A stretch of 49,116 nucleotides of DNA, from the NCBI GenBank assembly GCA_029259285.1, contig JAPDJB010000010.1, positions 1-49,116 of the forward strand, given 5' to 3'. The notes beneath the pieces are model-generated. The model did no database searches and had not been told where the DNA came from. It saw only the letters and a program-made list of their open reading frames with translations. This DNA comes from Candidatus Bathyarchaeota archaeon. GTDB taxonomy: Archaea; Thermoproteota; Bathyarchaeia; TCS64; B23. This document shows, in pieces, positions 24,485-48,678 of this stretch (position 1 is its first letter; each line of letters starts with the position of its first letter). Both the position numbers and the translations under genes were made by a program.

Positions 24485-24516
24485 CTTTAATATGAGAGCG
24501 GGGTAGAGGTATAGCT

Positions 24517-26436: not shown

Positions 26437-26465
26437 AGCAGCGTCTAAAACTCTAAAGGCCTCCC

Positions 26466-26473
26466 TTAAATTT
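26466..26473 (-). promoter_or_regulatory. TATA-like box (AAATTTAA) about 30 nt upstream of the tRNA-Pro 5' end
   Basis: The plus strand reads ttaaattt at 26466-26473, between the phoU stop (26475) and the tRNA. Confidence 0.4.
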
Positions 26474-26474
26474 C

Positions 26475-27500: not shown

Positions 27501-27559
27501 CGATATAAAGAGCTAAATAGAGTCATAAAAGGCTATAGAGCTTTAAACCGCTGATGCCC

Positions 27560-30032: not shown

Positions 30033-30037
30033 GGCGG

Positions 30038-30928: not shown

Positions 30929-30974
30929 CGATTGAGGGGAAATATATGGTGGCTTAAATATTTTATCGCATTTT

Positions 30975-31000
30975 TATATAGAGATTATTGAGATTATATA
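30975..31000 (-). promoter_or_regulatory. tandem direct repeat GAGATTAT-T-GAGATTAT flanked by TATATA/ATA, upstream of pstS
   Basis: The plus strand reads tatata-gagattat-t-gagattat-ata at 30975-31000. TATA-like runs lie at 30954-30965 and 30971-30980 (minus strand), upstream of the pstS ATG at 30928. Confidence 0.3.
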
Positions 31001-31001
31001 G

Positions 31002-31712: not shown

Positions 31713-31801
31713 GGAATATTACCACATGAAACATTTTTAATACTAATCTCCGAGGCGTGGAGACGAAAGTTGTTTAAGGATTGGGAGGGTAGGGAGGCGG
31801 G

Positions 31802-32347
31802 ATGGAGCTTAGACGCTTCAAGGCTAGGGATGGAAGGGAGGTCATCCTCAGAACCCCAAGGTGGAGCGACCTCGACGACATGCTGGATTTCATAAACTCC
31901 CTCGTTGAGGAGGGGGCTGACATCAACATCTGCCAACCCTACACGAGGGAGGAGGAGGCGGAGTGGCTTGCAAACCTCCTGGCATCGATGGAGAAGGGGG
32001 AGAGGATATCGGTGGTGGCGGAGGTTGAGGGCCATGTTATAGGCCACGTCGAGATACGGATAGGGAGATGCTACGAAAGCCACACAGGGGTGTTAGGCAT
32101 AGCGGTGAAGAGGGGCTATAGGGATAGGGGTATAGGAACAGAGTTGATGAGGATGGCTGAGGAGTTGGCCAGGGAGAGGGGGCTAGGGATAATAACCCTC
32201 GCCGTCTTCTCCACCAACAGCAGGGCCATCCACGTCTATGAGAAGCTGGGATACAGGGTTGTAGGCCGAGTTGAGAGGGGCATCTATAAGGATGGACGCT
32301 ACATAGACAAACTCCTCATGGCTAAGGAGGTCGAGGAGACGTCTTGA
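31802..32347 (+). CDS. GNAT-family N-acetyltransferase
   Basis: 181 aa. Motif A is RGYRDRGIGTELMR, followed by a NSRAIHVYEKLGY tail. Confidence 0.85.
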   Translation: MELRRFKARDGREVILRTPRWSDLDDMLDFINSLVEEGADINICQPYTREEEAEWLANLLASMEKGERISVVAEVEGHVIGHVEIRIGRCYESHTGVLGIAVKRGYRDRGIGTELMRMAEELARERGLGIITLAVFSTNSRAIHVYEKLGYRVVGRVERGIYKDGRYIDKLLMAKEVEETS

Positions 32348-32418
32348 GACCTATGATTCGATGAGGTCTCATCCGAATCTTAAAATCGGCTTTCATCAAC
32401 CTCTATATCGGGGTTTAG

Positions 32419-32823
32419 ATGGGTGGGGTTTCAAGGGTGAGCATATCGCTGCCTCCGAAGATGCTGGAGGAGTTCGATAGGGTGATAGAGCGGTTGGGTT
32501 TGACGAGGTCTAAGGCAGTTCAGGTTGCTATGCGGGACTTCCTAACGGAGCATCGATGGGAGACGGCTGAGGGATCAGTGGCCGGAGCCATAACGCTGCT
32601 CTACGACCATAAGACCCGAGGCGTAGAGGAGGAGGTGACCGACATACAGCATGAGTTTAGGGATGTAATCAGCTCCACGACGCATGTCCACCTCGATGAG
32701 AGGAACTGCCTAGAGATCATCGCCGTCCGAGGCGATGTGGCCCGAATCAGGGAGCTCTATCGGAGATTGATGGCTCAGAGGGTTAAGCAGCTTAAGATCA
32801 GCATACTTGAGACGCAATTTTAA
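32419..32823 (+). CDS. nikR: NikR-family nickel-responsive regulator
   Basis: 134 aa. The N-terminal RHH is RVSISLPPKMLEEFDRVIERLGLTRSKAVQVAMRDFL. The C-terminal ACT-like domain carries His residues (LLYDHKTRG, QHEF, HVHLD). Confidence 0.85.
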   Translation: MGGVSRVSISLPPKMLEEFDRVIERLGLTRSKAVQVAMRDFLTEHRWETAEGSVAGAITLLYDHKTRGVEEEVTDIQHEFRDVISSTTHVHLDERNCLEIIAVRGDVARIRELYRRLMAQRVKQLKISILETQF

Positions 32824-32952
32824 TTAGAGTGCTGAACCTATCAGAAGGCTGGGCTCTGGGGGTGTATCATCCGGACTGGATTTAGGCCTTGAGGATTCCA
32901 CCGGCATCCCCAGCCCAGAGGCTAAAAAGGGGATTCTACGAGGTGAAGTTGG

Positions 32953-34071
32953 ATGAGTGGGGAGGAGATGATCGTCACCCCCTGGAAGGTTTCGGGGGAG
33001 ATAAACTATGAACGCCTCATGGAGCAGTTCGGGACTAAGCCGATAACAGAGGAGCTCCTAAGGAGGATGGAGAGGATCGCCGGCCAACTACATCTACAGC
33101 TTAGGAGGGGAATCTTCTTCTCCCATAGGGACTTCGACTGGTGGCTCAACATGTATGAAGATGGACAGCCTGTTGGCCTCTACACCGGTCGAGGCCCTTC
33201 TGGACCTTGCCATCTTGGGCATCTACTCCCCTGGTTCTTCACTAAGCATCTCCAGGATATCTTCGATGCCCATCTATACTTCCAGATGACGGATGATGAG
33301 AAGTATCTCATACATCCAGAGCTGACCCTCGATGACACCGTTGGCTACACCTATGAGAATGCATTAGACCTCATAGCAATAGGCTTCGATCCAGAGAAGA
33401 CGCATATAATCTCAAACGTAAACCACATCCATAGGCTGTATAGGTTGGCGCTTCAGGTGGCTAAGCACGTCACCTACTCGACGGTTAAAGCCATCTTCGG
33501 CTTCACAGACAGCGACAACATCGGCATCATCTGGTTCCCAGCTCTGCAGGCTGTTCCCTGCTTCATACAATCCGTCATCGAGGATCGAAACGTCGCCGTG
33601 TTGATACCCGCAGCCATAGATCAAGACCCCTACTGGAGGATGACTAGGGACATCGCCGAGAAGCTGGGGTTCTACAAGCCGGCTCAGATACATGCGAAAT
33701 TCCTACCAGGCCTCGGCAGAGGCGGAAAGATGTCCGCCTCCATGCCTGAGACAGCCATCTTCACCATCGACCCCCCAGAGATGGCAGCGAAGAAGATCAT
33801 GAACGCCTACACGGGGGGCAGAGCCACAGCCGAGGAGCAGCGCCGACTCGGGGGAGACCCATCAATATGCACCGTCTACGCATACTATTATTACCTCTTC
33901 GAGGAAGATGACAAAAGGCTGAGGGAATTGGAGCACCGCTGCAGATCGGGGGATCTCCTCTGCGGAGAATGTAAGGCTGAGTTAGCCGAGAGGGTTAAAC
34001 ACTTCCTAAAGGATTTTCAACGACGAAGGGAACGTGCGAGGAACCAATTAGATAAATTCTTTTTAGAGTAA
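32953..34071 (+). CDS. trpS: tryptophanyl-tRNA synthetase
   Basis: 372 aa. The N-terminus VTPWKVSGEINYERLMEQFG is typical of archaeal/eukaryotic-type TrpRS. HIGH-type motif is PCHLGHLLP and KMSKS-type motif is KMSAS. GGTGA lies 6-7 nt upstream of the ATG. Confidence 0.9.
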   Translation: MSGEEMIVTPWKVSGEINYERLMEQFGTKPITEELLRRMERIAGQLHLQLRRGIFFSHRDFDWWLNMYEDGQPVGLYTGRGPSGPCHLGHLLPWFFTKHLQDIFDAHLYFQMTDDEKYLIHPELTLDDTVGYTYENALDLIAIGFDPEKTHIISNVNHIHRLYRLALQVAKHVTYSTVKAIFGFTDSDNIGIIWFPALQAVPCFIQSVIEDRNVAVLIPAAIDQDPYWRMTRDIAEKLGFYKPAQIHAKFLPGLGRGGKMSASMPETAIFTIDPPEMAAKKIMNAYTGGRATAEEQRRLGGDPSICTVYAYYYYLFEEDDKRLRELEHRCRSGDLLCGECKAELAERVKHFLKDFQRRRERARNQLDKFFLE

Positions 34072-34090
34072 CTACCTAGAATTAATTGGG

Positions 34091-35086
34091 ATGAATAGTA
34101 TTAAAGAATATTATCCTACTTATCCGTTATCATTAAGAACTCCTCCTAAAAGTAAAACACGGCTTGGTACTAGAAATATTTATGTTGATGTACCCTGGCA
34201 GGCTTATGATTTTTTAATTTCAACTCTTTTTAAAGGAAGACATTCCGAATTGAAAAAGGAAGAAGTAAGGGATAGCTGGAATAAGTACGTACTAAAGTAT
34301 AAGAATGATCTTACTTTTCAAAATAAACCAATTATTTCTGTATACCTTACTTCATCGCCATTTTCAATAAGAAAATTTTTAATACTTAAAGTTAATTGGA
34401 ATCCCTTCATTAAATATTTGGAGGATAAAGCTAAAAGTTTAATAAAGTTAGTTATGATGGAAGGAAATAATATAATGATGGTATATCAGGATATTTGGTT
34501 CAATTTCTTGAAAATAATAAAGGAAATAAGAAGTAAATTTGAGCCATATATATTGGAGAATACATTTGAAAGTTTTAAGAAATTAATAACTATAACGGGA
34601 GATTATCCACAAATTGAAGAAACATTAATAGATCTTGAAGAATTGATAGATACAATTGAACGATCATTTGAAAAATATAGATATGTTCAGCTTTATACAA
34701 TAAAATTTAAAATGAATGTAAGAAATATACATAATTTAATAGAAGAATTAAATATAGTTGCAATTTATTTTGTTTTAAGAAATTTACTTGAAGACTTCAT
34801 CAGATTTTTTATATATTTGGATTTTGGTAATAGAATCGTTAAAAATCCAGATTTAGTATTATCGTCTATGTTTATTTACGATTATCAGGCACCTTTAAGT
34901 ATTTCACTTAAAAAATTTAGAATTTATTCCTTAAAAGAATTCAAGAGAGAATTCCATAAAAAATTTCTAAGAGCGGTAGATGAAATCTTAAGTAAGAATA
35001 ATGAAGTAATTTCTGTATTTGATATAACCGACAAGCTAATAAATATTAAAATGAGAGTATTAGGAATAAAAAAAAGGATCTTCTGA
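34091..35086 (+). CDS. AT-rich orphan protein; the frame probably continues to 35292 after a -1 shift at an A8 run
   Basis: 331 aa ORF that is strongly AT-rich compared with the flanking trpS and HIT genes. No family recognised. See the finding on 35050-35292. Confidence 0.55.
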   Translation: MNSIKEYYPTYPLSLRTPPKSKTRLGTRNIYVDVPWQAYDFLISTLFKGRHSELKKEEVRDSWNKYVLKYKNDLTFQNKPIISVYLTSSPFSIRKFLILKVNWNPFIKYLEDKAKSLIKLVMMEGNNIMMVYQDIWFNFLKIIKEIRSKFEPYILENTFESFKKLITITGDYPQIEETLIDLEELIDTIERSFEKYRYVQLYTIKFKMNVRNIHNLIEELNIVAIYFVLRNLLEDFIRFFIYLDFGNRIVKNPDLVLSSMFIYDYQAPLSISLKKFRIYSLKEFKREFHKKFLRAVDEILSKNNEVISVFDITDKLINIKMRVLGIKKRIF

Positions 35087-35322
35087 AAGACTTTTGTAAC
35101 GAATATAAATTAGATGATAAATATTTAGTTAATTTATATACTGCTTGCAGCAATATAATTCATAATCAATCTCCCTTACCATTTTTATCACCACTTGAAA
35201 TGATGTTTTTCAAATATTTTCTTAAGATGTTTGTAGAGACATTAAAAACTTTAACTATGAAATTTATAAATCTATACAGCAAAAGAGAATAAAATAAATC
35301 TCTTATCGAGAGGTGAAAAGAT

Positions 35323-35751
35323 ATGATGGGTTGCATCTTCTGCCGTATCATACGTCGGGAGGCTCCGGCTCACATCGTCTATGAGGATGAGCATACGCTT
35401 GCCTTCCTCGACATCAACCCCTGCTCCCCAGGTCATACGCTGATCATACCGAAGCTCCACGCCCAACGTCTGGAGGATCTCCCTGAAGAGGAGGCCATAG
35501 CTCTCTTTAGGACGCTTCACCGCCTCATAGAGCCGATACAACGGGCTGTGGGGGCTGATAGCACGACGATAGGCATAAACAACGGCCCTGAGAGTGGTCA
35601 GGAGGTGCCTCACATCCATATCCATGTCATACCCAGGTTCAGGGGTGACGGCGGAGGCATAATCCAGGGCGTCGCAAGGCTGTGGAGGAGGCCGACCAGG
35701 GGGGAGATGGAGAGGATAGCGAGGAGGATAAGAAATCTCGTGGGGACTTAA
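35323..35751 (+). CDS. HIT-family (histidine triad) nucleotide hydrolase
   Basis: 142 aa. CIFCRII is at the N-terminus and the histidine triad is HIHIHVIPR. GGTGA lies upstream of the ATG. Confidence 0.9.
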   Translation: MMGCIFCRIIRREAPAHIVYEDEHTLAFLDINPCSPGHTLIIPKLHAQRLEDLPEEEAIALFRTLHRLIEPIQRAVGADSTTIGINNGPESGQEVPHIHIHVIPRFRGDGGGIIQGVARLWRRPTRGEMERIARRIRNLVGT

Positions 35752-35804
35752 CTTATTCATGTAAGCTCTTAAAGCCCAGTCTCGAAGTTCTTCTAGGGGT
35801 TGGG

Positions 35805-36887
35805 ATGAGGCGTAAGGTGTTTAGGGGTATGGGTTGTAGGCAAGTCGGCCACAGCGGCCTCTGGGTCTCAGAGGTTGGCCTCGGCCTATGGAAGTGGGGT
35901 GACCCCTCCTACGATGGTTCAAAGGTTGGTGAGCATGAGGGCTTCAAGATTCTTGATCGAGCCTTAGAGTTTGGGGTCTTCTTCTGGGATACTGCTAACT
36001 CCTATAATTGGGGCTCTGGGAACTCTGAGAGGCTGATTGGACGCTATTTTGCCTCGAGGGGTCGCCGTGTCAGGGAGCAGGTGGTTCTGGCGACGAAGAT
36101 CGCTAATTCCGTTAGGGAGGAGCATGAGGAGAAGGCGGATTTCACGCCGAATCAGCGTGGGGCTTCGAGGCTGTATATACGCAGAGCCGTCGAGGGATGC
36201 CTCAGACGCCTCCAAACCGACTATATAGACCTCCTCTATGTCCACTATCCCGTCCTCGATGAGCAGGGTGAGTATGAGACTCCCTTAGAGGAGACCTGGG
36301 GAACCCTCGACGACCTCATCTCCGACGGCGTGGTCTACTATCTCGGCGTCTCAAATTACAACATCAGGCAGATAGAGGAGGCGAGGGAGGCGCTGAGGAA
36401 GGTTGCCAAGGATGCCTCCAGACGCATAGTGGCTGTTCAGAACCCCTACAACCTCTTGGAGAGGGATGGGGTATCGAAGGAGGAGGGCGTAGGCGAGGCT
36501 GAGTTTCTACGATATATCCGTGAGGCGGGTATAGGCCTAGTGCCCTACTTCCCCCTCGCAGCCGGCATGCTGACGGGGAAGTATAGAGAGGACAACGTCG
36601 AGAGGGTTGAGGGGCATATCATCGATGACAAGCTTCAGGACAGATACTTCACCGAGGCAAACTTCAGGGCTGTGGAGCTTCTTGAGGAGTTCGCTAAAAG
36701 GAAGGGCATAACGCTTCCGCAGTTGGCTATAGCCTGGCTCCTCAGCCATGAGGAGGTCTGCGGAGTCATCGCCGGAGTCACCAAGATGGAGCATCTTGAG
36801 GACAACGCCAAGGCGACGAGCATCGAATTGACGGAGGAAGACCTCAGGGAGATCGATGAACTGCTTGAGAGGGCTGGGGTTAGATGA
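35805..36887 (+). CDS. aldo/keto reductase
   Basis: The start is moved to MRRKVFRGMG... (35805). The track's upstream extension overlaps the HIT gene. GLGLWKWG, FWDTANSY, DLLYVHYP and GVSNY are AKR-type motifs. Confidence 0.85.
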   Translation: MRRKVFRGMGCRQVGHSGLWVSEVGLGLWKWGDPSYDGSKVGEHEGFKILDRALEFGVFFWDTANSYNWGSGNSERLIGRYFASRGRRVREQVVLATKIANSVREEHEEKADFTPNQRGASRLYIRRAVEGCLRRLQTDYIDLLYVHYPVLDEQGEYETPLEETWGTLDDLISDGVVYYLGVSNYNIRQIEEAREALRKVAKDASRRIVAVQNPYNLLERDGVSKEEGVGEAEFLRYIREAGIGLVPYFPLAAGMLTGKYREDNVERVEGHIIDDKLQDRYFTEANFRAVELLEEFAKRKGITLPQLAIAWLLSHEEVCGVIAGVTKMEHLEDNAKATSIELTEEDLREIDELLERAGVR

Positions 36888-36904
36888 CAGGGATTTAAAA
36901 ATCG

Positions 36905-37771
36905 ATGGAGACTAACATCACGATGGCTGAGAAACCCAACTATGGCTCTCCGACCTGGCATGTGGTCTCCAACGCCATGTTGGGGTCTGCCCTCATCCTC
37001 GTGGGGGTCATCGCCGGAGTCCGCTATTCACCTCTCCTATATCTGCTGATCATCCCCTCCATCTACTTCCTATGGTCGGCTTATGGTTGGAGTAGGGGAG
37101 GCTACCTGGAGGAGAGGCTGCGCATCAGGGAGGAGTTTATCAGGGCCGTCGGAGTTGGAGACGGTGAACGAATCCTCGACGTTGGAACGGGGTCGGGCTT
37201 CCTCGCCATAGGCTTCGCAAAGGCGATGAGGGAGGGGGAGGTGGTCGGCATAGACATCTGGATGCCCATGGGAGGCGGAACAACCATGGAGAACGCCTTG
37301 AGGAACGCCGAGATCGAGGGTGTCTCAGACAGGGTGGAGTTCAGGAGAGCTGATGCGAGGGAGATACCATACCCAGACGGCCACTTCGATAGGGTTGTGG
37401 CCAGCTTCACAATCCACATCATAAGGGATTGGCCGAGGGCGCTGAGGGAGATGGTTAGGGTTCTCAAGCCAGGGGGAGTCCTCGCCCTCTTAGAGCCTGG
37501 AAGGGGATGGGCATCTGGATGGAAGGTTGAGAGGGTTGTGGAGCATCTCAAGGAACTCAGCCTGAAACAGGTGAAGCTCCAACCCCTCACGATCAATTTT
37601 CCAAAGCGGAGGACGGTCTACCTCATCAAAGGTGTGAAGACAGGGGGAAGGAATGAACACCCCTCCATAATGGAGCTGGCGGGGAGATTTGAGGGAGCCG
37701 TGGATTATACGGGGGAGGTTAAGGAGGAGGTGGAGAGACTCTTCCTCCAACGACATGAGGAGACAAAGTAG
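36905..37771 (+). CDS. class I SAM-dependent methyltransferase with two N-terminal TM helices
   Basis: 288 aa. Motif I is ILDVGTGSGFLAIGFA and the post-I/II regions are present. Two hydrophobic segments sit at the N-terminus. Confidence 0.8.
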   Translation: METNITMAEKPNYGSPTWHVVSNAMLGSALILVGVIAGVRYSPLLYLLIIPSIYFLWSAYGWSRGGYLEERLRIREEFIRAVGVGDGERILDVGTGSGFLAIGFAKAMREGEVVGIDIWMPMGGGTTMENALRNAEIEGVSDRVEFRRADAREIPYPDGHFDRVVASFTIHIIRDWPRALREMVRVLKPGGVLALLEPGRGWASGWKVERVVEHLKELSLKQVKLQPLTINFPKRRTVYLIKGVKTGGRNEHPSIMELAGRFEGAVDYTGEVKEEVERLFLQRHEETK

Positions 37772-37807
37772 AGCAGCAGAGATTTAACGCTTAGAATCCA
37801 TATCACC

Positions 37808-38911
37808 GTGGTGGAAGCCTTGGAGATATATGAGATTCTCAGAGACCTAATGGAGGCTCCAGCCGTCACGGGCTTCGAGGATCAGCGTCGCCAGAGAATA
37901 ATCGAGTATTATAAGCGGTTCTGCGACTCCGTCTCGGTTGATGTCATCGGAAACGTCATCGGAACCCTCGGCGAAGGCGATAGGGCCGTGATGATCGCAG
38001 GCCACTACGACCAGATAGGGTTCATGGTCCGCTACATCGATGATAAGGGCTACATCCACTTCTCACCCGTCGGAGGCTGGGATCAAAGGGTTGTCTACGG
38101 TATCAGGGTTAGGGTCTGGATCGGCGATGGATTGGATGACTATCTCATAGGCGTCGTTGGAGCCAAGCCTGCTCACCTGGCTGAGCCTAAGGAGAGGGAG
38201 AAGGTTGTTGGGTTTAAGGATATGCGCATAGACATCGGCGTTGGGAGCCGAGAGGAGGCTGAGAGGCTGGGGGTCAAGCCTGGATGCCCAATCACGCCGG
38301 ATTCTACGCTGACAAGGCTGGGCAAAGGCGATGGAGACCTATTGGTCGGCCCAGCCTTCGACGACGTCTGCGCCGTAGCCTCCATGATCAAGGCCCTGGA
38401 GATCCTCGACGGCGAAGCCCCCGAAGGCTTGAAGGTGTATATGGTGGCGACGGTTCAGGAGGAGATAGGGCTGAGGGGTGCAACGGTCTCGGGATATAAC
38501 CTGAAGCCCTGGTGCGCCATAGCCTGCGACGTGACGCACGCAGTGGCTCCAGGCGTCGAAGCTGAGAGGGTGGGGGGCGTGGAGCTGGGGAAGGGCCCCG
38601 TCATCGCCGTGGGAGCAAACTTCACCAGACCCCTATGGGAGCTGATGATGAAGGTAGCCGAGGAGAAGGGGATTCCATATCAACGTGAGGGGATACCAGG
38701 CCGCAGTGGGACGGATGCCTGGGCCCTGCAGGTTGTGAGGGGTGGAACCATAACGGGGCTGATATCCATACCGAATAGGTATATGCATACGCCCAACGAG
38801 GTCATCTCCCTCAGCGACTTGGAGAATGTGGCCAAGCTGATGGCTGAAACCCTCAAGGTGCTGCCAGACAGCGATCTAAGGCATATAATAGAGGTTTATA
38901 AGAAGAGTTAG
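37808..38911 (+). CDS. M42-family aminopeptidase (TET/FrvX-like)
   Basis: 367 aa, GTG start. Metal-ligand context motifs are IAGHYDQIGF, AFDDVCAV, VQEEIGLRGA, ACDVTHA and RYMHTPNE. Confidence 0.9.
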   Translation: MVEALEIYEILRDLMEAPAVTGFEDQRRQRIIEYYKRFCDSVSVDVIGNVIGTLGEGDRAVMIAGHYDQIGFMVRYIDDKGYIHFSPVGGWDQRVVYGIRVRVWIGDGLDDYLIGVVGAKPAHLAEPKEREKVVGFKDMRIDIGVGSREEAERLGVKPGCPITPDSTLTRLGKGDGDLLVGPAFDDVCAVASMIKALEILDGEAPEGLKVYMVATVQEEIGLRGATVSGYNLKPWCAIACDVTHAVAPGVEAERVGGVELGKGPVIAVGANFTRPLWELMMKVAEEKGIPYQREGIPGRSGTDAWALQVVRGGTITGLISIPNRYMHTPNEVISLSDLENVAKLMAETLKVLPDSDLRHIIEVYKKS

Positions 38912-38913
38912 CC

Positions 38914-38939
38914 TCTTTTATTGATTTTTATCTTTATCT
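38914..38939 (+). terminator. oligo-T tracts between two convergent genes
   Basis: The sequence ctcttttattgatttttatctttatc directly follows the M42 stop. Archaeal termination commonly uses T-runs. Confidence 0.35.
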
Positions 38940-38949
38940 CCCTTTCTAC

Positions 38950-40044
38950 TTAGGTAGAGGGAAGTGTAAGTTGTCTAAACTCTTCTCTTCCCTTCCTCCT
39001 CTCGATTTTCATTTTTCTCTTTGATGATTTTTTGCTCTTTTCAAGTATTTCTAACATTGCTTGAAGTTCTCCTGTAATAGCTTCATAGATATCATCGAGC
39101 TTATTTTTCCAATCTTCTAATCCTAGCATTTCAAGAGAAACCTCATCAATTAATCTCTGAATTGGACTTCGATTCTTATATCTATTAAATAATGTATCAA
39201 CATTAAGTTTACTAATTTCATCAAAAACTTTTAAAGCCCTATTATAAATATTTTCAGATAACATTTCAAAATTTGGTATGTGAATTTGAGACCAAACTTG
39301 ATCTCCTTGAAAAGCTACCCATGCTCCTTCTGTTTCAACAGCAAATCCAATCAGTTGTAATAATGAAATACTACTATTTAGATATAAAGTTAAGAGCTTT
39401 GATTTATCTAGCCCAAAATCATCCGTTTGAACACAAATCATTGGAGCTGAAGGGCCAATAATTTTATTTTCTGAGAAGAAAGTTAGATAATATATGTTAG
39501 GAGAGGTTAATCTCGCTCTTCTAACTAATAAAATATTTCCAGCTAGATCATCATATGCCTTTTTTAAGTCTTCTATAGCTCTACGAAAGTTTGAAAGATT
39601 TGTGATACCGGCCACCTTTAAAAAATTATATGGTATAGCATTACCATTAATAAGTGCGAATTCTTCTTTTCCTGTTATATTAAAATGAGAAACACCAGCT
39701 GGAGATCTCAAGGAATAAATACAGCAATTCAAATTAATTTCACATATGCTATCCTTCTGTTTAATGGGACATATTTTAATTTTATTTTCCTTTATTTCTT
39801 TAATTATAAATGAAATTTTACCACGAGCCCCGTATCTAACTAAAAATAGTCTTCTGGCATAGTCTTCAACACCACGTGTAATGTATTGCCCTGGATTATA
39901 ATCTCTAAGAGAAATTAATCCTGAATTTTCAATGTCACCTATTGTTGGATGATTGGAAATATCATCTAATAAATCAAGGATTATATTCTGTGTTTTGAGA
40001 TTATTTAATCCAACTAATGGTTTTATATTTTTAATATGCTTCAT
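38950..40044 (-). CDS. AT-rich ORF (364 aa from the first Met); the C-terminal part resembles specificity/C-terminal domains of N6-adenine-methylase-type R-M enzymes; probably 5'-truncated
   Basis: The track ORF (508 aa) runs on into the antisense of the Lrp gene, and only codons from M145 (40044) onward are AT-rich. The segment KSKLLTLYLNSSISLLQLIGFAVETEGAWVAFQGDQVWSQIHIPNF recalls the LNS....F......G.....y....l..lPIP pattern of TaqI-like/type IIG C-terminal domains. This is from memory only. No methylase catalytic motif (NPPY/F) is present. Confidence 0.4.
   Translation of the reverse strand: MKHIKNIKPLVGLNNLKTQNIILDLLDDISNHPTIGDIENSGLISLRDYNPGQYITRGVEDYARRLFLVRYGARGKISFIIKEIKENKIKICPIKQKDSICEINLNCCIYSLRSPAGVSHFNITGKEEFALINGNAIPYNFLKVAGITNLSNFRRAIEDLKKAYDDLAGNILLVRRARLTSPNIYYLTFFSENKIIGPSAPMICVQTDDFGLDKSKLLTLYLNSSISLLQLIGFAVETEGAWVAFQGDQVWSQIHIPNFEMLSENIYNRALKVFDEISKLNVDTLFNRYKNRSPIQRLIDEVSLEMLGLEDWKNKLDDIYEAITGELQAMLEILEKSKKSSKRKMKIERRKGREEFRQLTLPST
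40022..40029 (+). promoter_or_regulatory. TATA-like box TTTATATT spaced for a leaderless Lrp transcript starting at ATG 40048
   Basis: The box centre is about 23-26 nt upstream of the ATG at 40048. It lies inside the AT-rich ORF on the opposite strand, so it could be fortuitous. Confidence 0.35.
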
Positions 40045-40047
40045 GTT

Positions 40048-40536
40048 ATGCGAAAAGGTCAGCTCGATGAGATCGACAAGGCAATTATCGAGAACATCCT
40101 GAAGGGCAAGACGCAGAGTGAAATTGCAGAGATGCTTGGAATAACACTCAGGACTGTTCAGAACAGGGTCAGAGCTTTGGAAGACAGTGGGTATCTCATA
40201 AAAATAAAGGAGGGGTACTGGAAGGCTAACTACCAGAAACTCGGCCTCAGCATGCTCACAGTGACCTTCATAGATCTGGACGTGGAGTCGAAGCCCAGAA
40301 TTGATGAGGTGATAGAGCACTTCAAAAAGCTGGACTACGTTGAGAACATACTTGAGCTCGTCGGCTCTGCTTATGACCTCTGCCTTGTCGTGAGATACAA
40401 GGACATTGCAGAGTTCAACAAGGAAAGAAGGAAGTTTATGGAGTGGTTTGTTAAAAATGGAATCGGAATCAACCATCTGAGTACCTACATCTCTTCAAAG
40501 TGTCACAAGGATCACAGGAGAACGATACTTGACTAA
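40048..40536 (+). CDS. Lrp/AsnC-type HTH transcriptional regulator
   Basis: MRKGQLDEIDKAIIENILKGKTQSEIAEMLGITLRTVQNRVRALEDSGYL is an AsnC-type HTH, followed by a small alpha/beta effector-like domain. The track start at 40036 adds four residues. Confidence 0.8.
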   Translation: MRKGQLDEIDKAIIENILKGKTQSEIAEMLGITLRTVQNRVRALEDSGYLIKIKEGYWKANYQKLGLSMLTVTFIDLDVESKPRIDEVIEHFKKLDYVENILELVGSAYDLCLVVRYKDIAEFNKERRKFMEWFVKNGIGINHLSTYISSKCHKDHRRTILD

Positions 40537-40542
40537 ACGCAC

Positions 40543-40548
40543 TTTTTT
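40543..40548 (+). terminator. T6 tract 7 nt after the Lrp stop codon
   Basis: acgcacttttttgc follows the TAA at 40534-40536. Confidence 0.4.
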
Positions 40549-40596
40549 GCAACTCAGCTGAACATTTTTATCGGTTGTTAATACATTTCAAAAAAG

Positions 40597-40604
40597 TTTT
40601 AAAA
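40597..40604 (+). promoter_or_regulatory. TATA-like box TTTTAAAA about 27 nt upstream of the CooC-like ATG (leaderless spacing)
   Basis: aaaagttttaaaactatg; the box centre is near 40600 and the ATG is at 40627. Confidence 0.45.
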
Positions 40605-40626
40605 CTATGTGTGAACAGTTGATGTA

Positions 40627-41355
40627 ATGAAGATACTCGTTTGCGGGAAGGGTGGGTGTGGTAAGAGCGTAATTTCAACCTTAATTGCAAAGGGGCTGGC
40701 TGCAAGAGGCAGGAAGGTCCTTGTTGTTGATGCTGATGAGTCAAACTATGGCATACACAGAAATCTTGGTGTTGAGCAGCCCAGAGACTTCATGGAGTGG
40801 CTTGGCGGGAAGGAAAAGGTAAGAGAAAAGCTGCTGAAGTTCATACAAGAGGATACGAGAATCGTTGAAGATGTGAGAATTGACATGCTGCCTGAGGACT
40901 TTGTTGAGAGGAAGAACGGTATCGCGGTGATGGCTATCGGCAAAATCCACGAGTTTGGCGAGGGCTGTGCCTGTCCGATGGGTGCTGTGGCAAGGGAGTT
41001 TCTGGAGTCCATCAAGCTTGAAGATGGCGAGGATGTTGTTGTTGACACCGATGCGGGGATAGAGCACTTTGGCAGGGGAGTTGAGGCTGGATGTGACGTT
41101 GTTGTGGTTGTTATTGAGCCCAGCTATGAGTCGATTAGACTTGCGGAGAAGATTGCCAGTATGGCCAGAAGCATCGGTAAGAGGGTTGTGAGGGTTGCGA
41201 ACAAGGTCGATGAGGAAGCTGCGGAATTGATAGAGGCCGATGCTTACGTTCCATACAGTCAGGAGATCTATCGAGCATGCCTTTTTGGAGAGGAAATTCC
41301 GCTGGTAGATGGTGCTGACAGAATCGTTGACAAAATTTTGGAGGTGGCGAAATGA
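40627..41355 (+). CDS. CooC/MinD-type P-loop ATPase (nickel-insertion accessory protein family)
   Basis: 242 aa. The deviant Walker A is CGKGGCGKS and a CxC-like metal motif is GEGCACP. The layout resembles CooC/AcsF-type ATPases. Confidence 0.75.
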
Positions 41356-42448
41356 GAAAACTGGTGGTGATCTTTGCACTCATTCTTGTTGCAGCACTTG
41401 TAGCTGGATGCGCCCAGAAGCAGGAGGAAAAAACCGAGACTGTGAAGGTGGTGGATTAGTAGGAAGGGAGGTTGAGGTGCCTGCAAAGGTCGAGAGGGTT
41501 GTTGCCATAGGTCCTGGAGCGTTGAGGCTGATTGTCTATCTCAATGCATCTGACATGGTTGTTGGGGTTGAAGACGCTGAAACCTCCTGGCCGGCGATGG
41601 GTAGGCCCTACAGAATGGCACATCCAGAGTTTGCCGAGATGAAGGTGATTGGGAAAGGTGGACCGAGTCCGACTCCTAACCCCGAGGCCATAGCTGCGGT
41701 AAAGCCGGATGTGATTTTTGCCTGTTATTTCGACAGCAGCAGGGCGAATGCACTGCAGGAGCAAACTGGTGTGCCTGTTGTGGTTTTGAGCTATGGAGAG
41801 CTGGGCAACTTCAGGGCTGAGGAGATATACGACTCCCTCAGGCTGGCGGGGAAGATCTTGGGGAAAGAGGAGAGGGCTGAGGAGATAATAAACTTCATCG
41901 AGTCGGCCTATGCCGATCTCTCCAGCAGGGTTGAAGATGTCCCTGACAGTGAGAAACCATCGGTCTTTGTTGGGGCGCTCGGTTTCAAAGGCGGGCATGG
42001 CATTGAATCCACACAGTGCAACTTCCCACCTTTCATGGCTGTGAAGGCTAAAAATGTCGCATGTGAGGCTGAGAAGAGTGGCCCCTTCTTCATAGACAAG
42101 GAGCAGCTTCTGGAGTGGGACCCGGATGTCATCTTCCTGGACGAGAACAACCTCCACTTGGTTCTCACGGATTACGAGAAGAACCCTGAGGTTTACAGAT
42201 CTTTGAAGGCCTTCAAGAACGGAGGGATCTACGGGATACTGCCATTCAACTACTACACCACCAACATAGAGACGGCAATTGCCGATGCGTACTTCATAGG
42301 CAAGGTTCTGTATCCCGATAAGTTTGCGGACATCGATCCGGCAAAGAAGGCAGATGAGATCTTCAAGTTCTTTGTCGGCAAGGAGCTCTACGCCGAGATG
42401 GCAGCGAAGTATGGCGGGTTTAAGAACATAGCAGATGCATTCACATGA
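41352..42448 (+). pseudogene. Fe-chelate/cobalamin-type ABC substrate-binding lipoprotein with a 1-nt frame break near 41456
   Basis: The ATG at 41352 encodes [35 protein letters not shown], a lipobox signal peptide. The mature domain ([25 protein letters not shown]...) continues in another frame to 42448. One extra T in gattag (to gatttag) would fuse them as ..[14 protein letters not shown].., the usual start of class III binding proteins. Confidence 0.75.
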
Positions 42449-43461
42449 TCGAGTACAGCAGAAGGCTGAGAAATGCGGAGATTTTGCTGATAGCAGTACT
42501 TGTTTCTTCCTTCTTATTTGCCCTCTTCATCGGCCCCTACGATCTCACACCTAAGGAGGTCATCGATGCATTGGTGACGGGAACTCCGCCTGTAATAAGG
42601 AGCGTCCGTCTGCCGAGGATTGTGACAGCACTGCTTGTTGGAGCAAGTCTTGCAGTTAGTGGGGCTGTTATGCAGTGCATCCTCAGGAATCCATTAGCTT
42701 CTCCTTTCACCCTCGGCATATCTCAGGGGGCCGCCTTTGGGGCGGCGTTTGCAATAATCTACTTGGGGGCGGGAGTGCTGCACAGGACGGGGGAGAGCCT
42801 AACAATCCTGAACCCCTACCTCGTCCCCTTCTTTGCCTTTCTCGGCTCGCTCATAAGTGTGTTCGTTATTTTAATGCTGTCCAAGCTCAGAAATTTAAGC
42901 CCTGAGGCCATGATTCTGGCGGGAGTTGCCATGGCCTCTCTTTTCCAGGCCGCAACGATGCTGATGCAGTACTTCACGGATGATGTAAAGGTGGCATCTG
43001 TCGTTTTCTGGACTTTCGGAGATATGGGCAGAACGACATGGATGGAGATCTTTCTGATCTTCCTTGCACTCTCATTCTGCCTCCTGTACTTTATTATGAG
43101 GAGGATGGACTACAACGCATTAACTCTGGCCGATGAAACTGCCATATCCCTCGGGGTCAACCCACAGAGGGTGAGGATGGAGAGCCTTCTGCTTGCATCC
43201 TTCTTAACGGCGATATGTGTCTCCTTTACCGGTATTGTGGGGTTTATCGGACTTGTTGCCCCGCACTCGATAAGGATAGCTGTTACGGGAGATTACAGAT
43301 ACCTCATCCCTCTCAGCACTGCTTTTGGGGCAGCTTTACTGCTCATAGCGGATACCTTCGGAAGGACGATCTTGATGACGGTGGCCATCCCTGTAGGTAT
43401 AGTGACGGCCTTTATTGGAGCACCCACCTTCATATATCTTCTCCTTAGAGGCTGGAGGTGA
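42445..43461 (+). CDS. FecCD-family ABC transporter permease
   Basis: 338 aa polytopic protein. [23 protein letters not shown] and [15 protein letters not shown] are FecCD/BtuC signatures. ATGA overlap with the upstream gene. Confidence 0.9.
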
Positions 43462-43465
43462 TCGC

Positions 43466-44209
43466 ATGTCAATCACTGTTAAAGGTTTGAGTTTTTCCTA
43501 CAACTCGAAACCCGTCTTGAAAAATCTGAGTTTCGATGTCAGGGCTGGAGAAGTTGTGTTTATTGTTGGACCAAATGGCAGCGGGAAGACGACCCTTTTA
43601 AAGTGCATCGCAGGGATACTGAAGCCAAGAGGGGCAGTATTAGTCGAGGGATTAAATCTTTCGGGCAAGGATCTGGCAAAAAGACTTGCATACGTCCCTC
43701 AGAGAAGTGACGTGGCATTCTTAACGGTTTTTGACATCATACTTCTCGGAAGGAAGCCGCACATGGGGTTTAGGCCGGGAAAGGAGGACTATGAAGTCGT
43801 GAGGGAGGTTATCACCCTGATGGACCTTGACGAACTTGCCTTCAGAAGGGTGGATGAGCTGAGTGGGGGAGAAGTGCAGAAGGTCATGATAGCCCGTGCC
43901 CTTGCACAGAAGCCGAGGATACTGCTGCTTGACGAGCCAACGAACAACCTGGATGTGAGAAACCAGATAGAGATAATGAGGCTGATCAGAAAAATTGCAA
44001 AGGAGAGCGGCATATCAGTGGTATCGACAATGCACGACCTAAATCTTGCATCACTTTATGCGGACAGGATTCTGATGCTGAAAGATGGGGAAATATTTGC
44101 CGAAGGTGGTCTGGAGGTCCTGACCAAGGAGAACATCAGGGCTGTGTACGGCATAGATGTGGAGGTTGTGCGGTTTAATGGGAAGGCTGTGATCCTGCCG
44201 GGTGAATGA
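43466..44209 (+). CDS. ABC transporter ATP-binding protein (FecE/BtuD/HemV-type)
   Basis: The start is moved to MSITVKGLSF (GGTGA 5 nt upstream). Walker A is GPNGSGKTT, the signature is LSGGEVQKV and Walker B is LLLDEP. Confidence 0.9.
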   Translation: MSITVKGLSFSYNSKPVLKNLSFDVRAGEVVFIVGPNGSGKTTLLKCIAGILKPRGAVLVEGLNLSGKDLAKRLAYVPQRSDVAFLTVFDIILLGRKPHMGFRPGKEDYEVVREVITLMDLDELAFRRVDELSGGEVQKVMIARALAQKPRILLLDEPTNNLDVRNQIEIMRLIRKIAKESGISVVSTMHDLNLASLYADRILMLKDGEIFAEGGLEVLTKENIRAVYGIDVEVVRFNGKAVILPGE

Positions 44210-45203
44210 AATGCTGGAGATCCCGGAACTGGCAGAGGAATTCGAGGAGATGATCAAAAGCTGGGGTGATGGGTTCAGAAAGATGCAGCTTTTGAGAGCG
44301 GCGATAAACCTGGGGCTGTTTGACAGGCTGAAAGAACCGAAGACTCCCAAAGAGCTGGAAATTGGAGATGAGAAGCTCACACGGATTGTACTTGAATGCT
44401 TGGCAACATTGGGCCTTGTTGAGAAGAGAGATGGCAGGTACACTCTGTCCAAGATCTCTGAAATCTTCCTGACCTCCGACTCACCCTACTCTCAGCTCAG
44501 GTGCTTGGACAAGCTCTTCTCAGATCTCGAAATGTGGACGGAGCTTGAGAGCATACTGAAAAAAGGCCCGATAAAGGTTGAAAGGGGCAAATTCTTCTCA
44601 GAATCTGTGATACACTCTATGGCCCAGCATGCACTTTTGGGTGAGCTCCAAAAAACTGTTGAAATTGTTTACGAGTACATTAAGACGGCAGAGCGTCTGC
44701 TGGATCTTGGGGGAGGGCACGGCCTGTACTCGATTGCCTTTACAAAGGTAAATCCCAGGCTTACAGCAGTTGTGTTTGACCTTCCGGAGGTTGTTGAAAA
44801 GGCGAGAGAGTACGTGCAGAGACACTCTGCCAGCAGAGTGGAATTTGTTGCGGGAGACTTCTTCGTCGATGATATCGGTGCTGGATACGATGTGGTGTTC
44901 TCGTCCTACAACCCGAGCGGTAAGAGCGTGTGGATGATCGACAAGATACGGAAGGCTCTAAATCCTGGCGGGATTTACATCAACAAGCAGTACTTCAAAA
45001 GCAACAGCAGGGGTATAGATCTCTGCGATCTTGAGTGGAACCTCTGGTGCTTTGGTGAAGTTGAGAAGGCTGAGAAAAAGTATACCTTCAGGAAGGATCT
45101 GGATATTGATGGATACATCAGAGAGCTTCTCAAAAGGGGCTTTGAAGTCCTCAAGGTTCTCGATTTTGGAGAAGTAAATATGATCGTTGCAAGGAAAAAG
45201 TAA
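44202..45203 (+). CDS. SAM-dependent methyltransferase with an N-terminal winged-helix dimerisation-type domain (O-methyltransferase family 2-like)
   Basis: 333 aa. An N-terminal wHTH-like region (LRAAINLGLFDRL...LATLGLVEK) is followed by motif I LLDLGGGHGLYS and DLPEVV. It overlaps the ATPase stop. Confidence 0.7.
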   Translation: MNEMLEIPELAEEFEEMIKSWGDGFRKMQLLRAAINLGLFDRLKEPKTPKELEIGDEKLTRIVLECLATLGLVEKRDGRYTLSKISEIFLTSDSPYSQLRCLDKLFSDLEMWTELESILKKGPIKVERGKFFSESVIHSMAQHALLGELQKTVEIVYEYIKTAERLLDLGGGHGLYSIAFTKVNPRLTAVVFDLPEVVEKAREYVQRHSASRVEFVAGDFFVDDIGAGYDVVFSSYNPSGKSVWMIDKIRKALNPGGIYINKQYFKSNSRGIDLCDLEWNLWCFGEVEKAEKKYTFRKDLDIDGYIRELLKRGFEVLKVLDFGEVNMIVARKK

Positions 45204-45229
45204 ATAACAGCCCCTCCCCAGTATGGCAG

Positions 45230-46219
45230 ATGCAGGATTTCAAGAAGCTCCCAACTGTCTTGACAGCTGAGGAGCTTATAGATAAAATCTTCAGACGTGC
45301 AGGGAAAGTCGAGGGTAGAAATCCGAAAGAGAGGGCTATAAACAAGCTTTCCACGATATCCAACGTCTCGAAGGACTACTTAAGGAAGATCGTCGAGGCC
45401 CATCCGAGCTACGATTCACTGCCGGACTTTTACCGCGAGATGGTGGATGTCGTTGTTGGGATTCGAAACCTCAAGAAGGCCCTTGCAGCTCTTAAATGGG
45501 CGGATGGTATGATTCAGAAAATCGTCAGCAAAAGCATAAGAGATGTGAAGAGTGGTAAGAACCCGGCAAGTGTTCTAAGATCCACGTACGGAAGAGTTGC
45601 CTCGGTCATAGAGCAGATCGATGAAGAGCTGAGGTTCCTCAACGATGCAAAAAACAGGATGAGGGAGATACCCGTTCTGCTCGACTTGCCCACACTGGTT
45701 GTTGCTGGTTACCCCAATGTTGGGAAGTCCTCTCTCGTGGCCAGAATTTCGACAGTTAAGCCCGAGGTTGCCAGCTACCCCTTCACGACCAAAAAGGTAA
45801 ATTTGGGCTTTGCAGAAATTGGTGGGAAGAGGGTTCAGATCATAGACACTCCCGGACTGCTTGACAGACCCCTCAGCAAGCGAAACGCCATAGAGAGGAG
45901 GGCAGTTCTGTGCTTAAAGCACTTGGCCGATGCCGTCATTTTCGTGATAGATCCGACAGAAACGTGTGGCTATCCTGTGGAGAGGCAGATTGCCCTGCTT
46001 GAAGAAATCAGGACCTACTTCCATCTGCCCGTGCTGGAGGTTTACAGCAAGGCAGACATGCACGATAGAAGGGACAAGCCGGCATACTCAGCCATAACTG
46101 GAGAGGGGATTGATGCCGTGCTTGAGGAAATAGAAAAAATGTTAAAAAAGATTTACTCGCAGACGTCCACAGTTATGGCGCCCTCAGGGCAAACCTCTAC
46201 ACAGGAGCAGCACTCCTGA
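45230..46219 (+). CDS. Nog1/Drg-like GTP-binding protein
   Basis: 329 aa. A NOG1-type N-terminal helical domain is followed by G1 GYPNVGKSS, G3 DTPGLLD and G4-like SKAD. The last roughly 22 codons are antisense to the ferredoxin gene. Confidence 0.85.
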   Translation: MQDFKKLPTVLTAEELIDKIFRRAGKVEGRNPKERAINKLSTISNVSKDYLRKIVEAHPSYDSLPDFYREMVDVVVGIRNLKKALAALKWADGMIQKIVSKSIRDVKSGKNPASVLRSTYGRVASVIEQIDEELRFLNDAKNRMREIPVLLDLPTLVVAGYPNVGKSSLVARISTVKPEVASYPFTTKKVNLGFAEIGGKRVQIIDTPGLLDRPLSKRNAIERRAVLCLKHLADAVIFVIDPTETCGYPVERQIALLEEIRTYFHLPVLEVYSKADMHDRRDKPAYSAITGEGIDAVLEEIEKMLKKIYSQTSTVMAPSGQTSTQEQHS

Positions 46220-46344
46220 CATTCATCAGGGTTTGCCGGATAGCTCTTTCCGTCGTCGTTGAACTCAAAAACTCCTCCAGGGCAGACAGAAATGCACTCT
46301 CCACATCCACTGCATTTGTCCTGATCCACCGTTATTTCAGCCAT
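46153..46344 (-). CDS. 2x[4Fe-4S] ferredoxin
   Basis: 63 aa with two CxxCxxCxxxCP motifs (CSGCGECISVCP, CQECCSCVEVCP). Confidence 0.85.
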   Translation of the reverse strand: MAEITVDQDKCSGCGECISVCPGGVFEFNDDGKSYPANPDECQECCSCVEVCPEGAITVDVCE

Positions 46345-46389
46345 TTAGCATCACCTCCAAGAGTCAATTTTCTGGTAGGAGGGAAGTAT

Positions 46390-47286
46390 TTAATTTTTTT
46401 GATTTTCCCTGTTTTCGAAAAAACTGTCAGCCATTCTGCGAATGAAGAGATTGGTGAATGCCGTTAGATTCGTAATGTGAGGCTGGACGGTTTTAATTAG
46501 CTCCAGTTTTTTGCTTTCGATACCAGAATAAAATGGTCTGATTCTTTCTGAAAACTCACCCTTCCCTTTCGACGCTTTGTAGCCTGTAACTATTGCATGA
46601 AGGGCGTTGATCATGCACCAGATTCTGAACAGATCCCTCATATCGCCAAGCCAGTGCTCAACCTTTCTTCCAACTTCTGCAGCTTTTCTGCACCCAATAC
46701 TGCAGGGATAGAATCCAGAGGTGAAGAATTGCGGCAGGGAAATAACTTCTGACTTTACAAAGGCGTCAAGAACGTCATCGAACAGTCCGCTCTCTATGCC
46801 CTCCAGTATCACCCTGCTCTCAGCAGGGAGGGAGGATTTATCTCTCTTGCTTCTAATGTAGCTTTCAGTGCAGCATTCCGGATATCCGAGCATTTTGCCC
46901 TCGATCCTTACCAGCCGTTCTCTTGCCTCTTCAAAGTCCACTGATCTATTCAAAGCTCTCATTTCAATTTCCCTCATCACATCGAACTCTCTCTCGCAGT
47001 CTCTGTGAACAAAAAACTGAATGTCAGGTGAGATCGTGGGCTTGCTTAAAATCCTGTTGATAAAAGCTATGTAAGGGTGAACCTTCAGCCCGCCGTTTAC
47101 AACCATCCTGTACTCTCTTGTGTTTTTCAGATGTTCAAGGATCTTGCTCTCGACTCTTTCCACGTTATTTGCCCTCAGCTCTTGTAAAACAAACTGCGAA
47201 GTAAATACCTGCTGGGGAAGCACACATTTAGCCACACCGCACTTTACTCTGGAGATCTCAAAAAACAGAACGGGATTTTCAAGCAT
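46390..47286 (-). CDS. hypothetical protein, DUF483-like (GYPECC motif)
   Basis: 298 aa Cys-containing protein (GYPECCTESY, YPCSIGC). The family call is from memory only. Confidence 0.45.
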   Translation of the reverse strand: MLENPVLFFEISRVKCGVAKCVLPQQVFTSQFVLQELRANNVERVESKILEHLKNTREYRMVVNGGLKVHPYIAFINRILSKPTISPDIQFFVHRDCEREFDVMREIEMRALNRSVDFEEARERLVRIEGKMLGYPECCTESYIRSKRDKSSLPAESRVILEGIESGLFDDVLDAFVKSEVISLPQFFTSGFYPCSIGCRKAAEVGRKVEHWLGDMRDLFRIWCMINALHAIVTGYKASKGKGEFSERIRPFYSGIESKKLELIKTVQPHITNLTAFTNLFIRRMADSFFENRENQKN

Positions 47287-47304
47287 AAAATAAAGAAAAA
47301 ACGT

Positions 47305-47538
47305 TTAACCTTCAGCCCTCTTCTTTTCAAGCTCCTCGATATGCTCCTTTGTCGAAACGTAGGTTGTGGAGCCAGAGGACCAGTATCCGGCTACACCCTC
47401 CTCAATAAGATCCTGCACGATCTTTCTTACAACCTTCTTGTCCATCTTCAGTATCTTTGCCAGTTCGGGTATTTTCCATGTCTTCTTTCCAAGCTGGCTA
47501 AGAACCTTCTGCTTGTCCTCCTCAGTATATTCCACCAT
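47305..47538 (-). CDS. dsrD: dissimilatory sulfite reductase-associated protein DsrD
   Basis: 77 aa winged-helix protein. Conserved segments are K.WKIPELAK and YWSSGSTTY. It lies directly downstream of dsrB, with GGTGA 7 nt upstream of the ATG. Confidence 0.85.
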   Translation of the reverse strand: MVEYTEEDKQKVLSQLGKKTWKIPELAKILKMDKKVVRKIVQDLIEEGVAGYWSSGSTTYVSTKEHIEELEKKRAEG

Positions 47539-47580
47539 TTTAGGTCACCTTAAAAAATTTTGAAAGAGTGTTTATAAGCT

Positions 47581-48678
47581 CTACCATCTGAACTGGGTTG
47601 TTGCTCTGAACTCGCTGTAGAAGTACGGCGTGATTCTGTAGTCGTCGATCAGGTGGGCAGTGAACTCAAGTCCGGTGAGTTCGAAGAACCTCTCCCAGCC
47701 GATCCTGTCAACCCACTCGATCAGTCTCTCGTGCTTGTTCGCATTGGCAGCCCAGGTCTCAAGAATTGTCTTGATGTACTTGACGAGTGTTGGCCACCTT
47801 GGCGGCTCGTTCGGTACCCACGGAACCACGACCTTTGAAAGCTCTGGCACACGGCGAGCATCTGAAACTTTACCTCCGACAAGGATTGCTGCTCCATCGT
47901 TTTCAGGATCGAACAGCGGCATTCCGGGGCACATTGTGTAGCAGTTGCCGCAGTACATGCACTTCTCAACATCGACCTTGATGGTCTTGTTCTTCATATC
48001 CGGCTTCAAAGCTCCAGTGGGACATGCTGCAACTGTTGACGGGATCTCACATGTTCTTCTCACGGCATCATCGTCAACGAGCGGTGGGGTTCTGTGAATA
48101 CCGACAATTGAGATGTCTGAAGCGTGAACAGCTCCGCACATGTTCGCACAGCATGCAAGGCTGATCCTGCACATCGCAGGTAGCTTGTGGTCTGTGAAGT
48201 AGTCGTAGAGTTCGTCCATGATTGACTTGACTATACCAGATGCGTCGATAGCTGGGGTGTGGCAGTGGACCCATCCCTGGGTGTGGACGATGTTTGTAAG
48301 GCCGTATTCTCCCTTACTGGCATCCCATGTACCACCGCACGGGAAGCCAACCCTCTCCCGCACTTCGTTTATCAGCTCGTCGATCTTGCTCTCATCGGTT
48401 ACGAAGAACTCAACGTTGTTTCTGCTCGTCCATCTCAGGTATCCATCAGAGTACTTGTCCGCAATATCACACAGCTCTTTCACGGTGTAGATGCTAACAA
48501 GTCTTGGAGTTCCGAATCTCACGACATAGATGACGTCTCCACTCTCCGCAACTCTCTTGATGACTCCTGGCTTCACAACTTCGTGGTACTTCCACTTTCC
48601 ATAGTTCTTCGCTATTACGGGATGAAGCAGGTCTCTAAAATATGGTGGTCCGAAATCCGTCTTAATATCGCCAAACAT
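47581..48678 (-). CDS. dsrB: dissimilatory sulfite reductase beta subunit
   Basis: 365 aa. Sirohaem/FeS cysteine clusters ([20 protein letters not shown]) and a ferredoxin-like insert ([18 protein letters not shown]) are present. It is adjacent to dsrA with no gap. Confidence 0.9.

Follow-up and report, generated by a model that had tools for sequence, protein, structure and literature searches.

A dsr-bearing Bathyarchaeota contig is probably an assembly chimera of Bathyarchaeia and Archaeoglobaceae genomes

Phylogenies of dsrAB indicate several inter-domain transfers of these dissimilatory sulfite reductase genes, including into Archaeoglobus. To our knowledge, the established laterally acquired dsrAB loci of archaea are old, have adapted in composition and lie embedded between two junctions. 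Here we analyzed the whole 49,116-bp contig JAPDJB010000010.1 of a Candidatus Bathyarchaeota assembly (GCA_029259285.1; hereafter the window), in which a dsr locus adjoins DNA of an unrelated lineage and the right end falls inside dsrA. Such an adjacency is also seen at the laterally acquired loci; unlike them, the window shows strain-level identity to the putative donor and has a single junction. We consider it likely (probability roughly 0.8) that the contig is an inter-genome assembly chimera, in which Bathyarchaeia sequence is joined to Archaeoglobaceae sequence, and not a case of sulfite-reductase gene transfer.

The window also resembles the chimeric contigs known from short-read metagenomes. 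Its flanks differ in taxonomy and composition, and for each a native context is known from other contigs. A gene is cut by the join, which sits in a short, low-complexity and apparently shared stretch, there is a single junction before the contig end, and a low-coverage companion contig exists. The dsr genes themselves resemble the dsrABD locus of Archaeoglobus fulgidus in their order (dsrA-dsrB-dsrD) and in DsrB, which is ~92% identical to A. fulgidus DsrB (PDB 3MM5_B; counted by hand from the alignment). An initial annotation, made from the sequence alone, had called the Dsr peptides nearly A. fulgidus-like, and this holds. Compared with A. fulgidus itself, however, the dsr genes of the window are those of an uncultured Archaeoglobaceae species, with 98.4-98.7% nucleotide identity to contigs of metagenome-assembled genomes (MAGs), and dsrA is cut.

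Read literally, the contig would place genes for dissimilatory sulfite reduction in Bathyarchaeia; among the five papers matched by a literature search, none reported Bathyarchaeia with dsrAB. Such a misassignment would affect metabolic reconstructions, dsrAB-based surveys and gene-transfer inferences, an error that recognition of the probable misjoin prevents. We flag the bin holding the contig as contaminated across 40,021-49,116.

Two genomic origins within one contig

Over most of the first 38.9 kb, G+C content is 0.55-0.60; it is 0.30 at 38,924-40,020 and 0.49 at 40,021-49,116. G+C at third codon positions (GC3) is 0.667 in the left block and 0.577 in the right, and relative synonymous codon usage (RSCU) correlates between the blocks at only 0.53. 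In tetranucleotide composition, the left block shows r = 0.97 to Bathyarchaeia references and 0.56/0.41 to Archaeoglobaceae references, whereas the right block shows r = 0.49 to the former and 0.90/0.89 to the latter. The abrupt compositional switch described in the initial annotation is borne out. Its description of the left side as G+C-rich stands for most of 1-38.9 kb, but not for AT-rich islands at 9.2-10.9 and 33.9-35.4 kb. The two parts differ in both tetranucleotide profile and codon usage, the left having a Bathyarchaeia-like and the right an Archaeoglobaceae-like tetranucleotide profile, and the right block is without sign of compositional adaptation to the left.

Searched separately, the left part matches Bathyarchaeia and the right part Archaeoglobaceae. 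The composite nature of the contig, a block from the TACK superphylum beside an Archaeoglobus-type dsr block, had been proposed from the sequence and is fully supported by homology and composition. Four Bathyarchaeia MAG contigs (L001-L004) have 88-94% nucleotide identity to the left block across shared genes; together with tetranucleotide and Pfam data, they define this block as 1..38911. Similarity to the four ends at 38,903-38,923. The last gene in common encodes an M42 glutamyl aminopeptidase (37808..38911, plus strand; PF05343, 268.8 bits), with 93-95% amino acid (aa) identity to the relatives. Downstream of it, 4/4 relatives carry a different, mutually conserved gene set, none of it in the window: a membrane-protein open reading frame (ORF), then a 296-aa ORF and, in the longer loci, a 425-aa transporter-like membrane ORF, a GNAT-like ORF and a ~480-aa class I aminoacyl-tRNA synthetase-like ORF (these names come from the translations, without family searches).

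The right block (40021..49116), delimited by nucleotide identity and gene order relative to Archaeoglobaceae contigs, begins with the gene of an Lrp/AsnC-like winged-helix regulator (40048..40536, plus strand; HTH_24 and related Pfam matches). Two contigs share its gene order and ORF lengths, L081 (CBEUCM010000002.1) at 98.4% identity over 9,099 nucleotides (nt) and L199 (GCA_053993415.1, JBMYCF010000128.1) at 98.7% over 9.1 kb. Upstream of Lrp, both carry queC-queE-queD, nothing of which was found in the window. A Logan contig, L201, matches all 1,159 nt of the window from 40,021 to 41,179 (100% identity), yet has native Archaeoglobaceae intergenic sequence upstream. The exact Lrp protein occurs on five other contigs: L199, with queC-queE-queD; the short contigs L201-L203, with the same native intergenic sequence as upstream of Lrp in L081 and L199; and L200, with the junction of the window. 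Exact-protein look-ups of a 166-aa version of Lrp and of DsrB gave no match. The conserved Lrp start codon is ATG 40048, not ATG 40036; the initial annotation had placed the start at the former, which is conserved in L083 and L122.

An identical DsrD protein is encoded on at least 23 contigs. All 10 of the 10 displayed have a native dsr neighborhood, including the genes that flank dsr in the window (DUF483, ferredoxin, NOG1 and O-methyltransferase), and five DsrD contigs of the same species match the window at 98.4-98.65% nucleotide identity.

A truncated methylase gene and the 22-nt junction

Between the two blocks lies a 1.1-kb segment with 30% G+C and a GC3 of 0.19. Alignment to homologues identifies it as the 3' third (364 codons) of an Eco57I/MmeI-like N6-adenine DNA methyltransferase gene on the minus strand (38950..40041). 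The homologues are proteins of ~1,030 aa, with 39-58% identity between their C-terminal third and the remnant. All of them align from query residue 2 on and reach ~660 aa further N-terminally, which shows that the junction interrupts the methylase gene and leaves it without a catalytic domain. In the full-length homologue P0014, N6_Mtase/Eco57I/MmeI_Mtase domains lie at residues 314-552, and an NPPF motif is found in the family. The window copy begins past this catalytic NPPF domain, with ~660 codons gone. Compared with Eco57I/MmeI-like (type IIG/IIL-like) methyltransferases, then, the remnant corresponds to the C-terminal third, and the catalytic domain is entirely absent. The initial annotation had described an AT-rich minus-strand ORF that continues in frame into Lrp antisense, and had deduced that one gene is cut; the homologue alignments confirm both points. 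That longer ORF, of 508 aa, arises only through the open antisense strand of Lrp, which is open in L081 too. The remnant ORF (38950-40044, minus strand) has no Pfam or PADLOC match.

The methyltransferase family is widespread, with 461 proteins at E<=1e-20 (P0014-P0133; JGI metagenome contigs L128-L198). No Pfam or PADLOC model matches the ~360-aa region conserved at the C termini of its members.

We assigned the remnant to the Bathyarchaeia side, because similar islands are flanked by Bathyarchaeia sequence and the named members of the family are all from the TACK superphylum. Members that are named or that lie in GTDB genomes come from Bathyarchaeota/Bathyarchaeia, Nitrososphaeria, Nitrosopumilales, Desulfurococcales and Vulcanisaeta, and none from Archaeoglobi. 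The tetranucleotide profile of the remnant has r = 0.85-0.91 to three AT-rich islands (at 9.2-10.9 kb and 33.9-35.4 kb of the window, and one in L001), although AT-rich DNA correlates generally in tetranucleotide space. Its RSCU correlates with that of the window's AT-rich islands at r = 0.77. On either side of the island at 33.9-35.4 kb, the sequence is homologous to L004. Exact-protein look-ups of the 364-aa and 508-aa versions of the remnant gave no match, a single-protein scan of GTDB genomes found no relative, and a profile scan of JGI metagenomes found relatives at <=58% identity only. With the first 682 residues of a full-length homologue as the query, no fragment was found that ends in KHIKNIKPLVGL, as the missing 5' part would.

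The initial annotation had left open whether the breakpoint lies at about 40.0 kb or in the spacer that follows the M42 gene. Our data place it at the former and refine it to 40,021-40,042. The spacer (38912..38949) is a convergent intergenic region of 38 bp between the stop codons of M42 and the methylase remnant. The genes on either side have intact ends, and even among L001-L004 this sequence is hypervariable, with L001 similarity reaching 38,923. We therefore judged the spacer the less likely breakpoint; it is probably an ordinary island boundary.

Identity to Archaeoglobaceae contigs (L081, L199, L201, L202 and L203) sets in at precisely 40,021 (TTTTATATTTTTAATATGCTTCATG…), and methylase homology ends at codon 40039-40041. 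Because methylase homology runs right to ~40,041 and Archaeoglobaceae identity left to 40,021, ~21-22 nt are claimed by both parents. This junction (40021..40042) is the AT-rich stretch TTTTATATTTTTAATATGCTTC. On the minus strand, 40,041-40,021 encodes K-H-I-K-N-I-K (AAG CAT ATT AAA AAT ATA AAA), followed by P-L-V-G, and so fits in register a family motif, [KR][HY][IV]xN[LI]KP[LI]. Family members have F-[ILV]-x ahead of this motif; the H-N-M ahead of KHIKNIK in the window departs from that pattern. Homologues at 45-58% protein identity share 15-17/21 nt of the junction stretch. It is very unlikely (~1e-6, by a rough estimate) that foreign DNA would match five conserved motif positions in register by chance, and on the simplest reading the intact methylase gene would carry the same ~22-mer. 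By a rough calculation, two genomes of ~2 Mb each should have a handful of 21-mers in common by chance, with a larger number in AT-rich DNA.

On the Archaeoglobaceae side, a TTTTATATTTT element lies 20-27 nt upstream of the Lrp ATG and is conserved across three Archaeoglobaceae species (window 40021-40048; L081 2583-2610; L083; L122). This is probably a TATA box, and the Lrp transcript would then be leaderless or have a short leader. Only 27 nt of native upstream sequence are kept before the start codon at 40048.

Misassembly weighed against recent transfer

In the reading that we favor, the first ~40.0 kb would come from a Bathyarchaeia genome and would end inside an AT-rich, strain-specific island with a large methylase gene. 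The last 9.1 kb would be the native Lrp-to-dsrA segment of a co-occurring Archaeoglobaceae population. The parents would have been joined where the KHIKNIK coding DNA equals, over ~22 nt, the reverse complement of the Lrp TATA/start region, and the join may have been made at low coverage by a short-k de Bruijn step or by a tip/gap-closing step. If so, the contig illustrates how a chance match of ~22 nt, between an archaeal promoter and an AT-rich coding motif, can link two genomes during assembly. We favor a chimera because Archaeoglobaceae DNA with strain-level identity to the right block occurs elsewhere in its native queCED-Lrp context; because there is no compositional adaptation, no mobility signature and no second junction; and because the join sits in a ~22-nt stretch apparently common to both parents. 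It is plausible that both parents were in one sample, since 70 C enrichments from Guaymas Basin contain Archaeoglobus and Bathyarchaeia together, in similar abundance (PMC10570749).

Apart from the window, L200 (ENA ERZ25515786, NODE_11057_length_1334_cov_2.24), a SPAdes-style contig with 2.24x coverage, is the one sequence found to span the join. Over 39,988-41,321 it matches the window at 100% identity, with only 33 nt on the methylase side. Position 40,042, which we take to be the last shared base, is where the first 55 nt of L200 stop. By default, metaSPAdes uses k = 21, 33 and 55, and graph edges start with a k-mer vertex. Given this, the start of L200 fits a k = 55 graph fork between a methylase 5' branch and the Lrp branch. 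By our own estimate, a start within the predicted 4-nt range has a chance of ~3%, which is suggestive of an assembly-graph fork, not proof. Separately, the independent short contigs L200, L201 and L203 of the Archaeoglobaceae species all start within 33-47 nt upstream of 40,021, a pattern that points to repeated assembly breaks in the AT-rich intergenic region between queD and Lrp.

Several considerations weigh against misassembly. The artifact is inferred, not observed. L200 is a second public contig that holds the same junction at 100% identity, and the junction would be reproducible if L200 stems from an independent read set. The apparently shared ~22-nt stretch is shorter than the usual final k of de Bruijn assemblies; because it is only ~22 nt long, a k = 55 contig such as L200 needs a spanning or chimeric read, a carried-over low-k contig or gap closing. 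The intact methylase gene, which would prove the shared 22-mer, was absent from all collections searched. Finally, a microhomology of ~22 nt could also mediate real recombination.

A genuine and very recent transfer, in which at least 9 kb of Archaeoglobaceae DNA with dsrABD recombined via this microhomology into a Bathyarchaeon's methylase gene, perhaps within a subpopulation only, nevertheless seems improbable to us. If true, it would be a notable event: dissimilatory sulfite reductase would have been caught crossing between phyla, into the TACK superphylum, in near real time. It would fit the presence of the junction in a second assembled contig, but L200 has a coverage of only 2.2x, extends just 33 nt beyond the junction and begins at the position expected of a graph fork. 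The identity stretch at the join could support homology-facilitated illegitimate recombination, and both lineages co-occur in hot sediments and enrichments; yet the right block is compositionally unadapted and, over 1.16 kb, 100% identical to a contig with native Archaeoglobaceae context. The junction also destroys the methylase gene and strips Lrp of nearly all its upstream region, which, like the low coverage and fork-like start of L200, argues against a real transfer. No integrase or transposase was found at or right of the junction, where Pfam assigns the genes to housekeeping or dsr functions, and there are no meaningful direct, inverted or att-like repeats around it. A tRNA search found the sole tRNA of the window at 26.4 kb and none at or right of the junction. 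A two-junction test for an acquired island found one junction only before the contig ends 9.1 kb later inside dsrA. Exact-protein look-ups of the M42 peptidase, the adjacent methyltransferase and Elf1 gave no other assembly with this Bathyarchaeia strain. The protein index seems to omit the window's own contig, as even the 364-aa protein of the window went unmatched, and so such blanks are as expected if L200 and the window share one assembly. Moreover, chimeric contigs are far commoner than the capture of an inter-phylum transfer so recent. The initial annotation had left the choice between chimera and recent transfer open; the evidence favors the chimera, and nothing we found positively supports the transfer.

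Two further explanations concern the position of the boundary and the number of genomes. The boundary could lie at the spacer 38,912-38,949, or there could be two junctions; the remnant would then come from the Archaeoglobaceae strain or from a third entity (a virus, a plasmid or a low-G+C archaeon), the latter making a three-part chimera. Bathyarchaeia homology does end at 38,923, the remnant has no relative closer than 58% identity, so that its owner is not directly identified, and the tendency of AT-rich DNA to correlate weakens the argument from composition. Still, we regard this as doubtful, given that both genes reach the spacer with intact ends and that its sequence is hypervariable even among Bathyarchaeia relatives. 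In addition, 6/6 Archaeoglobaceae contigs that reach upstream of Lrp show native sequence and no methylase, named members of the methylase family are never from Archaeoglobi, and comparable AT-rich islands occur inside the Bathyarchaeia block and in L001. That the window is one ordinary genome, with both halves from the same organism and the dsr block an old resident, is almost certainly wrong. We found no evidence in support of it, and the homology and composition data contradict it: the right block is 98.4-100% identical in nucleotides to Archaeoglobaceae and the left 88-94% to Bathyarchaeia, the signatures differ between the sides, and a gene is truncated at the join.

Gene content and AT-rich islands

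Pfam searches bear out the gene content listed in the initial annotation, both PolD and Elf1 on the left and the order from Lrp through dsrA on the right. In the Archaeoglobaceae block, Lrp is followed by a CooC/CbiA-like ATPase (40627-41355); an ABC importer made up of a periplasmic binding protein (ending at 42448), a FecCD protein (42445-43461) and an ABC ATPase (ending at 44209); an O-methyltransferase (44202-45203); and a NOG1 GTPase (45230-46219). The remaining genes are on the minus strand: a ferredoxin (46153-46344), DUF483 (46390-47286), dsrD (47305-47538; Pfam DsrD), dsrB (47581-48678; Pfam NIR_SIR) and the 3' part of dsrA (48679-49116), which is cut by the contig end.

The Bathyarchaeia block encodes the large subunit of PolD (DP2; 1052-4459, minus strand), an Elf1 zinc-ribbon protein (5236-5499, minus strand; PF05129, 60.7 bits), the small subunit of PolD (DP1; 10058-11527, plus strand) and a class I W/Y-family aminoacyl-tRNA synthetase (32953-34071). 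Genes for HypF, an aldo-keto reductase and a methyltransferase also lie inside this block. It further holds two paralogous molybdopterin-binding large subunits of the xanthine dehydrogenase/aldehyde oxidoreductase family (14090-16438 and 20481-22799).

Low G+C alone was considered as a marker of foreign DNA or of a junction and rejected, because the left block holds similar islands within Bathyarchaeia sequence. AT-rich, strain-specific islands seem typical of this Bathyarchaeia lineage. The island at 9201-10920 (G+C 0.35) holds a MarR/TrmB-type helix-turn-helix gene (9318-9995) with weak Csa3/CARF-like PADLOC matches. It also includes the 5' half of the gene for the PolD small subunit, and such low G+C in part of a core replication gene is unusual. 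At 33941-35420 (G+C 0.29), a second island carries two ORFs, 34091-35086 (plus strand, 331 aa) and 35272-35760 (minus strand, 162 aa), neither of which has a Pfam or PADLOC match. At the same site, L004 has ~1.1 kb of unrelated DNA of normal G+C between its aminoacyl-tRNA synthetase and aldo-keto reductase genes. The island of L001 (5500-7000, G+C 0.31-0.39) lies a few kb downstream of M42 and contains a 362-aa lysine-rich ORF. Strain-specific indels are also seen: ~800 bp of L001 (268-1066) are absent from the window at 35743-35792, just upstream of the aldo-keto reductase gene.

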